The position numbers and the translations under genes are program-made. Shown piece by piece: positions 732 to 17,117 of a stretch of DNA of 56,322 bases. Within the stretch, counting starts at the first letter, position 1, and each line of letters starts with the position of its first letter. Origin of the DNA: a bacterium (lineage in GTDB: Bacteria; JAJRZV01); assembly GCA_024275095.1 (NCBI GenBank), contig JAJRZV010000074.1:1-56322 (forward strand), written 5' to 3'. The notes under the pieces were generated by a model, which made no database searches, was not told where the DNA came from, and was given only the letters and a program-made list of their open reading frames with translations.

Positions 732-3143
732 TCAATTTACCCCGAGGTGTTCTTTAAAAACCTTCACGGCCTCAAGGGCATCAGCAGCGTACATGCTTGC
801 ACCGATCTCCCTGGCAAACTCGGGGGTCACGCACGCTCCACCCACAGCCACGGGAATATCAAGTCCCTTTTTTCTCAATTCCTCGATCACCTTTTTCATT
901 GCCCCCATTGTTGTTGTCATCAGTGCACTCAGTGCCACGGCATCGGGCCGCTCGCGTTCCACGGCCCGGACAATTTCTTCCGTCTTCACGTTTTTTCCAA
1001 GGTCCACAACGTCAAAGCCGTTGGCCTCCAGGAGCGTGATAACGATGTTCTTGCCAATGTCGTGAACATCGCCTTCCACCGTGGCGAAGACAATCTTCCT
1101 GCCTGCTTTCCTTCGCGACCTTTTCAACGCAGGCCTGAGCACTTCAAACGCAGCCTTTACCGCCTCTGCAGATTGCATTACCTGGGGAAGGAAAAATTCC
1201 TGGGCAGCGAACTTTTTACCCACCACCGCCAGTGCGGATACAAGGTGTTCATTTCCTATGACCAGCGGGTCCACTCCCCCCTCGAGCATGTCCCTTGTCA
1301 GCTGAACCGCGGCCTCCTTCTCGCCCTGGATAACCGCCTGCTTGAGCCTTTCTTCAAGGGAAAGTTCTTCTGCTGGCGTTTCCACGGGAGTTGCACTGGA
1401 ACCTTCCTTTCCCGCCATTCGTTCAATATATGCTTTCGCACCCCTATCCTTCCCCGTGAGAAGCTGAACAGCCGATAATGTATCCATAATGTCTTTATCC
1501 AGGGGGTTGAGTATCACCGCGTCAACACCCTCCCACCCGGCCATGGCAAGAAAAGCTGCATTGATCACACGGCGTGCAGGAAGGCCGAAAGACACATTGC
1601 TGAGCCCCATGATCGTGTAGAGGCTTTTCTGTTTATAACCTCTCAGTGTCTTGAGTGTTTCTGCAGGAGCAGCAGCGTCACTGCTTACCGTGAGCACAAT
1701 TGGGTCAAAAAACATTTCCGAGAGGGGAAAGTTAAGCCCCCGGGCCTTTTCCACGGCCCATTCTGCAAGTTTTAACCTCTCCCCAGCTTTCCTGGGAACA
1801 CCGGCTCCACTGAGTGGCAGCACCACAACGGCGGCCCCGTAGAGCTTCGCCAGTTCTATAATCTGAATAAACTTCTCTTCTTCACACGTAGTGGAATTCA
1901 AAAGGGGCTTGCCGTCCACGCTTTTTACACCCGCCTCAAGGCCTTTTACGCTGGAGGAGTCCAGGCTTAACGGCAAAGGACTCGTCACGTTAACCGCGTG
2001 GACAACTTTCTTCATCAGCTGAACCTCGTCGGCACCCGGAATTGAAACGTTTACATCCAGAACATGGGCTCCGGCCTCCGTTTGCTTCCTTGCCTCTTCC
2101 CTGACAACAGAAATGTCACCGGCCCGAAGAGCCTCTATCAGGTGTTTTTTACCCGTGGGATTGAGCCTCTCTCCTATGAGCATGAGTTTTTTTCCATATT
2201 CACGAATATTTGTACGGGAAGAGAGTGCATGAAGATACCGGAGCCGCTGTGCCCTGTCTTCCAGGTTGTAAACCAAACTGTCAGCTGCGCTGCGCAGGGC
2301 TTTTACGTGTTCGGGGGTAGTTCCGCAGCATCCGGCAATAACACGTGCACCGGCAACGACGGCCTGTTCCACGTATGAAGAAAGTTCACGGGGCTCAGCC
2401 GGGTAAACCGTGACCCCATTTTTTACCACGGGAAGTCCGGCATTGGGCTGGAAAATAAGGGGTTTACTTGTATAGGGGGCCATCCGGATCAGCGCTTCAA
2501 GTATGCCGTCTGGTCCCAGGCTGCAATTTGCTCCTATTACGTCTACAGGCAGCGCGTTGAGAAGCACCCCGGCCGCTTCAGGCGTTGTTCCCAGCACGGT
2601 CCTCATGTCCTCCTGGAACGTCATCATGGCAAAGACAGGAATGTCACGCGAAAGCTGCCTGATCGCTACCACGGCTGCCCTCAGCTCCTTTACGTCCATC
2701 ATGGTTTCAATATTGAAAAGATCCACGCCTTCGTTAAGAAATATTTCCGCAACCTCTGTGAATATCTCCACGGCATCGTCAAACGAGAGGTCTCCCACCG
2801 GTTCGACAAACAGGCCTGTCGGTCCCATGCTGCCGGCCACAAGAGCCCGGCCGCGCGCTGCTTTTTTCGCTTCCCTTACAGCAGCGGAAATAATCTCCGC
2901 CAGCTGGTTTTCGAGCTTGAACTCGGCAAGCTTGATTCTGTTGGCCCCAAAGGTATTGGTTTCAATGATATCAGACCCTGCGCTGACGTATCCTTCGTGA
3001 ATCTCTCTGATTACGTCGGGATGTTTTACGTTTACAAGCTCAGGGGGACTGCCCGGAGATAAAACCCCCCGGGCCTGGAGAAGAGTGCCCATGGCACCGT
3101 CGAAGACAAGCACACGTTCCTGCAGCGCCTCTCTCACGTTCAT
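732..3143 (-). CDS. metH: Cobalamin-dependent methionine synthase (Hcy-binding, pterin-binding, cap and B12-binding domains; no AdoMet activation domain)
   Basis: DGAMGT, NCSLGP and GCCGT Zn ligands, IGERLNPTG, DVHDIG B12 motif; start moved to ATG 3143 behind AAGGAG. Confidence 0.9.
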   Translation of the reverse strand: MNVREALQERVLVFDGAMGTLLQARGVLSPGSPPELVNVKHPDVIREIHEGYVSAGSDIIETNTFGANRIKLAEFKLENQLAEIISAAVREAKKAARGRALVAGSMGPTGLFVEPVGDLSFDDAVEIFTEVAEIFLNEGVDLFNIETMMDVKELRAAVVAIRQLSRDIPVFAMMTFQEDMRTVLGTTPEAAGVLLNALPVDVIGANCSLGPDGILEALIRMAPYTSKPLIFQPNAGLPVVKNGVTVYPAEPRELSSYVEQAVVAGARVIAGCCGTTPEHVKALRSAADSLVYNLEDRAQRLRYLHALSSRTNIREYGKKLMLIGERLNPTGKKHLIEALRAGDISVVREEARKQTEAGAHVLDVNVSIPGADEVQLMKKVVHAVNVTSPLPLSLDSSSVKGLEAGVKSVDGKPLLNSTTCEEEKFIQIIELAKLYGAAVVVLPLSGAGVPRKAGERLKLAEWAVEKARGLNFPLSEMFFDPIVLTVSSDAAAPAETLKTLRGYKQKSLYTIMGLSNVSFGLPARRVINAAFLAMAGWEGVDAVILNPLDKDIMDTLSAVQLLTGKDRGAKAYIERMAGKEGSSATPVETPAEELSLEERLKQAVIQGEKEAAVQLTRDMLEGGVDPLVIGNEHLVSALAVVGKKFAAQEFFLPQVMQSAEAVKAAFEVLRPALKRSRRKAGRKIVFATVEGDVHDIGKNIVITLLEANGFDVVDLGKNVKTEEIVRAVERERPDAVALSALMTTTMGAMKKVIEELRKKGLDIPVAVGGACVTPEFAREIGASMYAADALEAVKVFKEHLGVN

Positions 3144-3208
3144 GATCACAGCACTCCTTCTTAAATAAACGAAAAAAATCGAAAAAGATATTAACACAAA
3201 ATAGCATT

Positions 3209-3415: not shown

Positions 3416-3445
3416 TTGACAAGTTTTCAACGAGATAGTAAAAAT
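3416..3445 (+). promoter_or_regulatory. Putative sigma70 promoter for tRNA-Val/tRNA-Arg
   Basis: TTGACA at 3416-3421, 17-nt spacer, imperfect -10 TAAAAA(T), just upstream of the tRNA. Confidence 0.5.
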
Positions 3446-3457
3446 AAATTTACACGC

Positions 3458-3529
3458 AGGCACGTAGCTCAGGGGGAGAGCGCTACCTTGACATGGTAGA
3501 GGTCGGCGGTTCGAAACCGCCCGTGCCTA
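3458..3529 (+). tRNA. tRNA-Val(GAC)
   Basis: AGGCACG/CGTGCCT acceptor, GCTC/GAGC D-stem, CTACC-TTGACAT-GGTAG anticodon arm, GGCGG-TTCGAAA-CCGCC T-arm; CCA not encoded. Confidence 0.97.
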
Positions 3530-3542
3530 CAAATGTTTCCAT

Positions 3543-3692
3543 GGACGCAGGCGTGATGGTAAACACGGCGTTTTTCATACAGACACACGCAGGTTTCGAA
3601 CCGCCGACTGGCGTGAGCCACGATGCAGAGCGAGGGAGCCATAATGCGACCGAGCGAGAATACCAGGGGCGGAACAATCGCCCCTTCACGAT
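3543..3692 (+). repeat. tRNA-linked structured element (tRIP-like), copy 1
   Basis: CAGGCGTGA, then a 17-nt exact reverse complement of the tRNA-Val T-arm region (3592-3608 vs 3502-3518), TGGC-GTGA-GCCA hairpin, GAGCGAG, TTCACG. Confidence 0.7.
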
Positions 3693-3757
3693 CCACATGC
3701 ACATCCACCCAAGCACAGCTCCTGCTGCACCAGCAGGGCCCGGTTTTAAAAACCCAG

Positions 3758-3831
3758 GCGCCCGTAGCTCAACAGGACAGAGCGGCGGGCTTCGGACCCG
3801 CAGGTTGCCCGTTCGACTCGGGTCGGGCGCT
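3758..3831 (+). tRNA. tRNA-Arg(TCG)
   Basis: GCGCCCG/CGGGCGC acceptor, D-loop with A20, GCGGG-CTTCGGA-CCCGC anticodon arm, GCCCG-TTCGACT-CGGGT T-arm; followed directly by a T-run, no CCA. Confidence 0.9.
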
Positions 3832-3928
3832 TTTTTCGGTACGTGTTGATGGGTCTGTTCCAGACTGGTATTCTTTCCCGGGCAGACTGTGATGAGGGAG
3901 TCGCCACTGAATATACCCTGAGAAAGAA

Positions 3929-14157: not shown

Positions 14158-15327
14158 TTAATTTTCTATTCTTTCGATAATTGTGATAGGTGCCATGCCT
14201 CCACCAGTACACAGTGTCACCATTCCATAACGTCCACCGATTCTCTCCAGCTCGTAAAGCGCCTTCGTTACGAGTATGGCACCTGTGGCTCCCAGGGGAT
14301 GACCCAGAGCGATAGCTCCACCATTGGGGTTCACCTTTTCCCAATCAGGGTTAATCTCTTTTCCCCACGCAAGAGGTACAGATGCAAAGGCCTCGTTAAT
14401 CTCAATGACATCCATGTCGTTGATGGAAAACCCCGTCTTCTGGAGAATCTTTTTTGTAGCCGGTATAGGACCGGTAAGCATCATTACGGGGTCGTCGGCT
14501 GCCACATCCATGGCCACAATTCTGGCACGTGGCTTTAAGCCAAGTTTCTCAGCTTTTTGTCTTGTCATAATAAGCACCGCTGCCGCGCCATCGCTTATCT
14601 GGCTGGAGTTGCCCGCTGTAATTTTGCCGTCGGGTTTAAACGCAGGCTGAAGCGCCCCTAACTTCTCCATTGACGTGTCAAACCTCACGCCCTCATCGGT
14701 ATCCATTAATTCCTTCGTCCCATCGTCCAGTGTTACTTCCAAGGGTACAATCTGAGATTTAAAACGTCCTTCTTCTATGGCCCTCGCCGCCTTTCTGTGG
14801 CTCTCCAGGCTGAATGCATCCAGCTCCTCGCGTGAAAGTCCCCACTTGTCTGCGACCATTTCCGCTGAAAGACCCTGCGGCACGATATTGAACCGTTCTG
14901 AAACCTTTGATGCAAAAGGATTGCCTCCAACAGCGATGTTGGTACCCATGGGCACGCGATCCATGCTCTCCACACCTGCCGCGAGAATACAATCGTGAAC
15001 TCCTGACATGACAGCCATAGCAGCGAGGTTTACAGTGGTGAGACTCGAACCACACTGCCTGTCAACACTGATTCCGGGAACCTCAACAGGCAGGCCAGCA
15101 GCAAGAACGGCGTTGCGGCCAATATCAAGTGCCTGGTCACCCACCTGAGACACGCATCCCATGTACACATCTTCAATTTCCAGAGGGTCTATCCCTGTAC
15201 GTTGCACAATTTCCCGGAGGACAACCGCTGCCATGTCAACCGGATGATAATTCTTGAGTTTGCCTTTACGTCTTCCAACAGGTGTTCTTACTGCTTCAAC
15301 GATTACAGCTTCTCTTCCCGTATTCAT
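14158..15327 (-). CDS. Acetyl-CoA C-acyltransferase (canonical thiolase)
   Basis: RQCGSS, NEAFA, GHPLGATG, CTGGG motifs. Confidence 0.93.
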   Translation of the reverse strand: MNTGREAVIVEAVRTPVGRRKGKLKNYHPVDMAAVVLREIVQRTGIDPLEIEDVYMGCVSQVGDQALDIGRNAVLAAGLPVEVPGISVDRQCGSSLTTVNLAAMAVMSGVHDCILAAGVESMDRVPMGTNIAVGGNPFASKVSERFNIVPQGLSAEMVADKWGLSREELDAFSLESHRKAARAIEEGRFKSQIVPLEVTLDDGTKELMDTDEGVRFDTSMEKLGALQPAFKPDGKITAGNSSQISDGAAAVLIMTRQKAEKLGLKPRARIVAMDVAADDPVMMLTGPIPATKKILQKTGFSINDMDVIEINEAFASVPLAWGKEINPDWEKVNPNGGAIALGHPLGATGAILVTKALYELERIGGRYGMVTLCTGGGMAPITIIERIEN

Positions 15328-15521: not shown

Positions 15522-15702
15522 CCAGTCACTGCGAGGAATATCATCGTGACCCCGCCGTCTTTTATCCTGTTATTGCGAATCCTGCTTTGGCAGCACGAAG
15601 CAATTCCCGGTGCATGCTCCAGCACATCAATAAGGCGTGTTTGAAACCCGGGATTGCTTCGCTCATCCCCTGCAATGCAGGAAAGTTGCTCGCAATGACT
15701 GG
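15522..15702. repeat. REP-like nested palindrome cluster (GTCA(C/T)TGCGAG ... GAAGCAAT / GATTGCTTC ... CTCGCAATGAC)
   Basis: CCAGTCACTGCGAG / CTCGCAATGACTGG outer arms; CGAAGCAATTCCCGG / CCCGGGATTGCTTCG inner arms. Confidence 0.8.
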
Positions 15703-15724: not shown

Positions 15725-15820
15725 GCGTGAATTATATGCTCGCTCCGCTCGCCCACTGCCTCACGGCAGTTCGAATCCCACCACACAGTTGATAATTTAG
15801 ACAATATTCACGCCTGATCC
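15725..15820 (-). repeat. tRNA-linked structured element (tRIP-like), copy 2
   Basis: On the minus strand: CAGGCGTGA, 14-nt reverse complement of the tRNA-Ser T-arm, ACTGCC-GTGA-GGCAGT hairpin, GAGCGAG, TTCACG. Confidence 0.7.
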
Positions 15821-15841
15821 TTCGTGGATAACTGCCCGTTA

Positions 15842-15930
15842 CAGAGGGGGTGGGATTCGAACCCACGATCCCCGGGTAAGGGGATACACGCTCTCCAGGC
15901 GTGCGCCTTCGTCCACTCGGCCACCCCTCC
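15842..15930 (-). tRNA. tRNA-Ser(GGA)
   Basis: GGAGGGG acceptor, CACGC-CTGGAGA-GCGTG anticodon arm, long variable arm, GTGGG-TTCGAAT-CCCAC T-arm, G discriminator; no CCA. Confidence 0.96.
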
Positions 15931-16157
15931 GGCTGTTTCAGAACATTATAAAAATAGCAGAGCGGCTGCGATTTTTCCAGGGACACTTCCCCGGATAACA
16001 CACCCTGCCAGTAAATAACCAAGACAGTAAATACCCTTTCCCGTTGAAAAAAAGATTCGAAATGTCTCTAAAACATAACCCCTGCACCGAAACACCCCGC
16101 CTTGTCGGAGCTGATGAGATGTGGTTTAATTCAGAAAACACTTCTTCAGGAGCGGAA

Positions 16158-17117
16158 ATGCTGAAGGAAATCCGCAAAGGCGAAAAAGGTGCACTCGCCC
16201 GTGCCATCACCGAAATTGAAAGAGGGACCTCACAGGGACAGGAAATATTAAGCCAGCTGGACAAAGGATTTTTAAACGCATACGTCATCGGTATTACCGG
16301 ACCATCCGGGGCCGGTAAGTCCACCCTGCTGAATGCCCTGGCAAATGAATACGTGGCCTCAGGAGAAAAAGTGGCCATACTGGCGGTGGATCCCACCTCG
16401 CCTTTTTCCGGAGGCGCCCTTCTCGGTGACCGCCTGCGCATGAACTCTCTTGCACTGAATCCGTCTGTATTTATACGAAGTATTGGTTCACGAGGGCGAC
16501 AGGGCGGTATATGTCCCATGGCATCCGATATTATCCGGGTCATGGACGCTGCCGGTTACCCTCTCATCTTCGTGGAAACAGTTGGAATTGGACAGGCAGA
16601 GGTGGAAGTAATGGATATCGCAGATACCGTTGTACTCGTAATTACTCCTGATTACGGAGACGGAATTCAAACTCTCAAAGCCGGAGTCATGGAAATTGCA
16701 GACATTTTTGTAATCAACAAGGCCGACAAGTACGATGCTTCGGCATTCGCTTCCGAACTTCGTACAATTCTGGAAATGTCCCGCAACAACTCCAATCCGT
16801 GGCAGAAACCTGTCATAGTAGCCTCTGCTCGCCGTAAGGAAGGAATTAACGAACTCAAAGATGCAATTGAAGCCCACAAGAAATTTCTTACTGAAACAAA
16901 ACTACTCGAAAAGCAGCGCTTTCAGCGACGACTCAAGGAATTTGCAGGGTCACTCGCCTCTGCAATTTCACAAAATATTAAAGAAATGATCAGTGGCGGT
17001 GAGTTCAAGGACCTGGAAAAGCTTATCGCAGAGGGTGCTTCTTCATTACATATAAAAAAGCAGCTTGTAAAAAAACTCCTGGAGGATCCCGATGCTATTG
17101 AAAAAGTATTTGGTTAA
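16158..17117 (+). CDS. meaB: Methylmalonyl-CoA mutase-associated GTPase MeaB/ArgK
   Basis: GPSGAGKST, AVDPTSPFSGGALLGDRLRM, ETVGIGQ, NKAD; alternative start at 16119. Confidence 0.92.
   Translation: MLKEIRKGEKGALARAITEIERGTSQGQEILSQLDKGFLNAYVIGITGPSGAGKSTLLNALANEYVASGEKVAILAVDPTSPFSGGALLGDRLRMNSLALNPSVFIRSIGSRGRQGGICPMASDIIRVMDAAGYPLIFVETVGIGQAEVEVMDIADTVVLVITPDYGDGIQTLKAGVMEIADIFVINKADKYDASAFASELRTILEMSRNNSNPWQKPVIVASARRKEGINELKDAIEAHKKFLTETKLLEKQRFQRRLKEFAGSLASAISQNIKEMISGGEFKDLEKLIAEGASSLHIKKQLVKKLLEDPDAIEKVFG

Follow-up and report, generated by a model that had tools for sequence, protein, structure and literature searches.

The window analysed here is a contig of 56,322 nucleotides (C39, GenBank JAJRZV010000074.1) from the assembly of an uncultured bacterium (GCA_024275095.1), and it carries two copies of a small element, one directly downstream of tRNA-Val(GAC) and one directly downstream of tRNA-Ser(GGA) (Table 1). 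In the Val copy, an antisense arm reproduces tRNA-Val positions 45-61 in reverse complement, i.e., the end of the variable loop, the 5′ strand of the T-stem, the T-loop, and two nucleotides of the 3′ T-stem strand. The exactness of this complementarity was the starting point of the original prediction and holds on the sequence, as does its statement that the segment behind tRNA-Ser matches tRNA-Ser, with 14 nt exact and no correspondence to tRNA-Val. The short scaffold words that it listed around the arm were all found in both window copies, in identical order. The genes surrounding the two copies are ordinary, a B12-dependent methionine synthase (732-3197, minus strand), a thiolase (14158-15327, minus strand) and a MeaB-type GTPase (16044-17117, plus strand), none of them related to mobile elements. 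A search for relatives with the neighbouring methionine synthase (MetH) as query found none in genome contigs, and its sole match in a metagenome contig was 33% identical.

Table 1. Features of the Val and Ser(GGA) copies in the window, and Y1 transposase genes on other contigs (contig handle before the colon).
Feature	Position	Strand	Basis or remark
Promoter-like site, 5′ of tRNA-Val	3416..3445	+	Consensus scan alone; hexamer matches 10/12
tRNA-Val(GAC), host gene	3458..3530	+	ARAGORN and Rfam; CCA not encoded
9-nt spacer word (scaffold 9-mer), common to Val and Ser(GGA) copies	3548..3556	+	Candidate for the 5′ side of a short closing helix, pairing with 3685-3690
Val antisense arm	3592..3608	+	Exact 17-nt reverse complement of tRNA-Val 3502-3518
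First core hairpin of Val copy	3609..3620	+	4 bp, GNRA-type tetraloop
Val copy, degenerate box region	3625..3658	+	Divergent box 3625-3639, AT-rich word 3640-3645, second 7-mer 3652-3658
Scaffold 7-mer, Val copy	3628-3634	+	Repeated at 3652-3658
T-arm-like hairpin of Val copy, with scaffold 6-mer	3666..3690	+	6-bp stem, 7-nt loop; 6-mer at 3685-3690
tRNA-Arg(TCG), second gene in Val unit	3757..3832	+	ARAGORN and Rfam
tRNA-Ser(GGA), host of second window copy	15841..15931	-	ARAGORN and Rfam
Scaffold 9-mer, Ser(GGA) copy	15816-15808	-	
Ser(GGA) element	15725..15813	-	Best R1 match in genome, 57.8 bits
Ser(GGA) closing-helix strands	15813-15806 and 15732-15725	-	
Ser(GGA) antisense arm	15782-15769	-	Exact 14 nt, against tRNA-Ser T-loop and 3′ T-stem strand
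Ser(GGA) GNRA-type tetraloop hairpin	15768-15757	-	
Ser(GGA) 15-nt box hairpin	15752-15738	-	
Scaffold 7-mer, Ser(GGA) copy	15745-15739	-	
Ser(GGA) AT-rich heptamer	15737-15731	-	
Scaffold 6-mer, Ser(GGA) copy	15731-15726	-	
Second box-like word, then 6 nt identical to tRNA-Ser T-loop/T-stem	15650..15664	-	Sequence reading
Y1 (HUH) transposase gene	C36:30069-30392		Open frames of the three Y1 genes, 323-334 aa
Y1 (HUH) transposase gene	C108:41156-41482		
Y1 (HUH) transposase gene	C55:5211-5534		

The Val copy lies between two tRNA genes, the second of which, tRNA-Arg(TCG), has no antisense arm of its own. Given the promoter-like site before tRNA-Val and a terminator-like stem with a T-run (3810-3839) at tRNA-Arg(TCG), the Val element is probably co-transcribed with both tRNAs as one unit. 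Its core is divergent, scoring 7.8 bits, which is noise level, against the covariance model of the core (R1), and its terminal T-arm-like hairpin (including the 6-mer) contains no recognisable sense copy of the tRNA-Val 3′ end. In fact, neither the Val nor the Ser(GGA) copy repeats the tRNA 3′ end in sense orientation within 1500 nt downstream. Behind tRNA-Ser(GGA), the second box-like word and the six tRNA-identical nucleotides that follow it may be a weak remnant of such a sense arm.

Antisense arms of this kind recur throughout the genome. The assembly (2.45 Mb in 136 contigs, 97% complete) contains 45 tRNA genes and one tmRNA gene, and for each of these the longest exact match was sought between the reverse complement of the gene and 300 nt of each flank. 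Exact antisense matches reach 11 nt or more (range 11-24) within 120 nt downstream of 14 of the 46 genes, the longest belonging to Trp (24), Tyr (21), Leu-CAA (20), Val-GAC and Ala-GGC (17 each) and Glu-UUC (15), followed by Ser-GGA and His (14 each), Phe and Ser-GCU (13 each), and four further genes with 11. None of the 46 genes reaches this length within 300 nt upstream, where the maximum is 10 and three genes have little or no upstream sequence, and none of the 74 distinct tRNAs (40 and 34) of two unrelated control genomes does so on either flank, with maxima of 9. Counting the weaker arms of Arg-UCU (10 nt), Ser-UGA (9 nt) and Leu-GAG (with mismatches), the element is found behind 17 of the 45 tRNA genes. 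When each downstream region was aligned to the reverse complements of all 46 genes, the adjacent tRNA was the best or tied match in 13 of the 17 copies, the exceptions being His, Arg-CCG, Arg-UCU and Ser-UGA. The downstream excess, its absence upstream and in the control genomes, and the preference for the adjacent tRNA establish that the antisense arm is host-matched and the host-specific insert real, in line with the initial notion of one scaffold carrying an insert specific to its host. Because the T-arm is nearly palindromic, antisense matches of some 6-9 nt arise frequently, and this symmetry or simple chance might be invoked to explain the arms. Such an origin is, however, practically negligible in probability: chance does not account for the observed distribution of matches of at least 11 nt, and dyad symmetry is ruled out because the matches cross the asymmetric T-loop and extend into the variable loop, the anticodon stem or the acceptor strand. 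Overall, the arms cover tRNA positions 41-85 and do not include the CCA end.

Many contigs (C59 and C129, C89, C98, C100, C104, C24 and C121) begin or end within or beside elements, C59 and C129 overlapping in one, and it is probable that the repeats fragment the assembly. The arm of the copy at the end of C104 fits none of the 46 assembled genes, so that its host gene is probably unassembled. Identical tRNA-Gln(UUG) genes occur at C24:7653-8024 and C121:65315-65686, with the arm and first hairpin in common and divergent sequence thereafter, which means that either the gene is present twice or one locus was assembled in two ways. At the end of the C121 copy is a sense segment that resembles a T-loop yet has no match to tRNA-Gln.

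The elements are protein-less, measure roughly 100-230 nt, and share a constant order, in which a trailer of about 25-80 nt is followed by the antisense arm (9-28 nt), a GNRA-type hairpin of 4-5 bp, a 15-nt box hairpin, an AT-rich heptamer and a GC-rich word. The box hairpin consists of a three-base GNA loop closed by two G-C pairs, a tandem G.A and two further pairs. Mini-hairpins with GNA loops are unusually stable as DNA. In an alignment of ten sequences from this genome (A2), all four pairs of the first hairpin are changed on both sides, and in the box the inner two G-C pairs are invariant and the outer pairs covary; the tandem G.A positions have become Watson-Crick in the Glu copy, and the box of the Leu-GAG copy is Watson-Crick throughout. 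Over both core hairpins, six of ten pairs show changes on both sides, with observed values reached by 0-1 of 500 shuffles, and the covariation score of the core was reached by none of 500. At E<=1, R1 gave 12 matches across the genome, of which two are contig-end copies, one lies about 80 nt upstream of tRNA-Pro(UGG) and the others lie closely behind tRNA genes; in five unrelated genomes it returned five weak matches, none near a tRNA. As to whether the scaffold also exists away from tRNAs, the core is thus confined to tRNA-gene neighbourhoods or contig ends. A closing helix between the trailer and the post-box region, formed by the two flanking scaffold words of the original prediction, was considered as a further general feature and rejected, since among 11 copies shuffles were beaten only in Ser(GGA), Phe and, marginally, Ser(UGA); in the Val copy they were not beaten (fraction 0.47).

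A minority of copies are more complete, and their architecture includes features that the earlier description of the element lacked. Six of the 17 elements (Leu-GAG, His, Arg-CCG, Arg-UCU, Ser-GCU and Leu-CAA) repeat, at +185 to +237, 16-26 nt of their tRNA in sense orientation, from the T-loop through to its 3′ terminus, and after this sense copy comes a second copy of the trailer. The clearest example is tRNA-His, where 76 nt, comprising the tRNA from position 52 onwards and 54 nt of trailer, are perfectly duplicated on either side of a 133-nt insert that starts with the antisense arm, and duplications of the same kind, though diverged, are present at Ser-GCU and Leu-CAA. Complete copies therefore look like an insert placed inside a 58-76-nt direct duplication that starts within the tRNA gene. 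Since CCA is neither encoded nor found in the sense copies, these derive from the gene or its precursor and not from mature tRNA. Minimum-energy folding predicts pairing between arm and sense copy for four of the six (Leu-CAA, Ser-GCT, Leu-GAG and Arg-TCT) and, in part, for Arg-CCG, but not for tRNA-His. The remaining 11 of 17 copies have no sense arm (in the Arg-CCU copy, none within 500 nt), and among them are perfect arms of 17-24 nt (Trp, Tyr and Val). A mirror-image copy with the same core was also observed on the 5′ side of tRNA-Pro(UGG) (C13:21133-21398), in which a 149-nt insert, devoid of an antisense arm of 8 nt or more, is enclosed by a 58-nt duplication of 43 leader nucleotides and tRNA positions 1-15.

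This layout is reminiscent of the tRNA-linked repeats (TLRs) of E. coli, known since 1978 (Egan & Landy 1978 and Rudd 1999, cited in PMC8144298). According to the excerpted passages of PMC8144298, 22 TLRs are present at ten loci, no function is known for them, and they are recognised by a final 18-19 bp identical to the 3′ terminus of the tRNA or rRNA that precedes them, a repeat which is suggested there to serve RNase E processing; antisense arms go unmentioned in these passages. The group includes the tyrT 178-bp repeats, or RtT (rttR) RNA, and the 5S-linked rrA/rrB/rrF RNAs. A literature search, most subscription journals excepted, yielded nothing on antisense arms in TLRs or on TLRs outside enterobacteria. 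The enterobacterial precedent invoked in the original prediction thus exists in the form of TLRs (PMC8144298), but under the name used in that prediction, 'tRIP', no family was found.

K-12 loci (tyrT/V, serX, the lys/val cluster, lysV and proK) were analysed in the same way as those of this genome. All K-12 TLRs examined consist of a trailer, an antisense arm to their own tRNA (at tyrT/V, serX, lysQ/V, the short lys copies and proK), hairpins, a box, a sense copy extending from the T-loop to CCA, and a repeated trailer. Like them, the elements described here follow a tRNA gene immediately, share its strand and lie within the operon, and the combination of insert and long duplication has the same form at tRNA-His and at E. 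coli lysV. At lysV, K-12 (NC_000913.3 2521253-2521593) equals strain E308 (NZ_CP030281.1) plus a 95-nt insert and a 61-nt duplication starting in the T-loop, and the element behaves as a presence/absence allele, with 2,305 of 5,426 complete E. coli genomes (~42%) covering at least 80% of the query. The annotation at this locus names the element 'RtT sRNA'. Comparison of the boxes by reading the sequences (the pair counts given above refer to this genome only) showed that the serX box is identical to the Ser(GGA) box at 15 of 16 positions, and that variants at lysZ/lysT, tyrV and proK keep the hairpin through inserted or exchanged pairs. An 11-nt box word occurs 19 times in K-12, compared with 15 times for the reversed control, and 11 of the 19 occurrences are just downstream of tRNA genes. 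In addition, a common two-base deviation of the anti-T-loop is found at three E. coli loci (serX, tyrT and proK) and in the Gln copy of this genome, which would create a tandem G.A opposite T-loop positions 57-58.

Differences from TLRs are equally evident. Neither window copy has the hallmark 3′-end repeat, which 11 of 17 copies lack overall, arms here are longer than those of TLRs (up to 28 nt), and the repeats lack CCA, as tRNA genes here encode none, whereas E. coli sense copies reach it. Occupancy also differs, with 17 of 45 tRNA genes here against the 22 TLRs at ten loci of E. coli (PMC8144298). The Rfam RtT model (RF00391) had no match in 20 element loci (E<=1) or in the whole genome (E<=10), with the control above the cut-off in E. 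coli only. Judged by the refuting condition that the original prediction had set, novelty is reduced by the shared layout, though not removed, given that the described RtT model itself is not matched. When R1 was applied to E. coli, the boxes were the top eight matches in 7.2 kb, at 8.7-10.3 bits against a best window background of 8.9, three of the four loci having been picked by the box motif itself. The shared layout, the near-identity of the boxes and the common anti-T-loop deviation make shared descent with E. coli TLRs likely. Common descent is nevertheless not proven, because R1 scores are near background and loci were chosen by motif, and convergence on a very stable hairpin is possible. 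The 5S-linked rrB element behind rrfB (NC_000913.3 4171757-4171925) has an anti-T-loop segment of tRNA type together with a strand that partners it, suggesting descent from a tRNA-linked copy; it ends in a terminal repeat that is a 13-nt exact copy of the 5S 3′ end, and it has no antisense arm to 5S.

We conclude that the elements of this genome constitute a divergent TLR-type element. That the antisense segment is the left arm of such an element, residing in a transcribed tRNA spacer or trailer and with arms templated from the host gene, is a reading we hold to be somewhat better than evenly probable. The arms would be produced on the host gene as the element arises, which would account for their host specificity, their match to the host would then be maintained by local templating, and no finished guide would have to be brought along by the element. 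In complete copies the antisense arm would pair with the sense copy to give a closing stem imitating the paired 3′ end of a tRNA, and tRNA-processing nucleases could trim the co-transcribed element RNA. In the Val and Ser(GGA) copies, which have no sense arm, the tRNA itself is the only possible partner, and their arms would be orphans pairing with it alone, possibly to no consequence. The flanking duplications at tRNA-His and E. coli lysV agree with the earlier proposal of an element that takes its insert, or homogenises it, from the target. The main fact left unexplained by the TLR-type reading is the existence of perfect 17-24-nt arms without a sense arm, which are not expected if these copies are merely decayed complete ones.

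These orphan arms bear on the cis-acting RNA switch that the original prediction had also put forward, by which the arm would invade the T-arm in the precursor, delay or block tRNA folding and processing, and so tune the tRNA level. In its favour, the tRNA is the sole partner in 11 copies, several of whose arms are perfect over 17-24 nt, and in the predicted minimum-energy fold of tRNA-Val with its spacer an 18-bp helix to the arm replaces the T-arm (z = -3.6, with 0 of 200 shuffles as good). However, any 17-nt complement yields a helix, so that this fold is not independent evidence, and neither the Val spacer nor the Ser(GGA) element, folded by itself, exceeds shuffles in structure (z = -0.3 and -0.2, respectively). 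The arm of the Ser(UGA) copy has shrunk to 9 nt, despite a core about 90% identical to that of Ser(GGA), and mismatches within arms, at ten too few to be decisive, show no wobble bias (one wobble-compatible, one incompatible and eight transversions). The element is, moreover, missing at lysV from more than half of the 5,426 E. coli genomes and hence dispensable there. Taken together, these observations make a regulatory switch unlikely. A comparably low probability is assigned to a mobile element in which the arm, alone or with the sense copy, guides a trans-acting enzyme to insert at the matching tRNA T-loop. The arms do span the start of the duplication (T-loop position 52/53 or 58/59), the perfect duplication at tRNA-His speaks for a very recent event, and the lysV allele, the mirror-image copy 5′ of tRNA-Pro and the many contigs that end in or beside elements, as they do with repeats, all sit well with mobility. 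On the other hand, each of some 17 targets would need its own guide, cores have diverged between different tRNAs and thus give no sign of recent jumps across tRNA types, no known guided system is compatible with duplications of 58-76 nt, and the genome, 97% complete, offers no outstanding candidate for the enzyme.

The search for a co-occurring enzyme gene, proposed in the original prediction, brought up none that sets this genome apart. A retroelement with a tRNA primer-binding site was rejected, as reverse transcriptase (PF00078) has no match in the genome and the arms cover positions other than the CCA end, and so was an IS110-type element with a bridge RNA, the DEDD recombinase (PF01548) being likewise without a match. 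Y1 (HUH) transposase genes are present, as they are in E. coli, but equally so in both control genomes, which have no elements. REP/BIME sequences and IS200/IS605 miniatures, which are moved by Y1 enzymes, insert by a fixed short target, generate no long duplications, and have ends that are not copies of the target. The elements here resemble them in being small, hairpin-rich, protein-less and repeated, but the long duplications argue against membership in the IS200/IS605 or REP-RAYT family. Tyrosine-integrase islands and prophages, by comparison, recombine in the tRNA T-loop and leave the gene intact with its 3′ end directly repeated. Leftover att sites of such islands or prophages, once integrated at these tRNA genes, would share with the elements the T-loop junction, the intact tRNA gene and the direct repeats of the tRNA 3′ end, which in six copies resemble attL/attR. 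They are nonetheless a very improbable source, considering that the inserts of 95-150 nt contain no genes or ORF, integrase and cargo are lacking, the duplication runs 43-54 nt past the tRNA end, and the antisense arm and conserved hairpin core are foreign to att sites. Seventeen tRNAs are occupied, yet the only tyrosine recombinases found are two Xer-like ones on other contigs, and no intact island with the same core beside its integrase was seen.

Beyond the TLR-type reading, it may be speculated, at a low level of confidence, that TLR-like modules are protein-less inserts found across phyla at the ends of stable-RNA genes, installed by a host-encoded, target-templated process with staggered breaks and copying of both strands. 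The breaks would be staggered by about 55-75 nt, one of them in the T-loop, both target strands would be copied into the arms, and the hairpin with its GNA triloop and tandem G.A would be the recognition site of the machinery.

Neither a function nor an origin has gained acceptance for TLRs since 1978. The presence of TLR-type modules behind more than a third of the tRNA genes of this genome suggests that they are more than a peculiarity of E. coli or a few chance events. The host-matched arm and the long duplication starting in the T-loop, both of which are also present in E. coli, place testable constraints on the origin of the module, and the natural filled and empty alleles at lysV make its effect on tRNA maturation, as well as its gain and loss, directly testable in a laboratory organism. 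If target-templated installation is true, it would amount to a new kind of DNA insertion; if the modules only shape precursor processing, they would be a widespread and overlooked part of tRNA operons.
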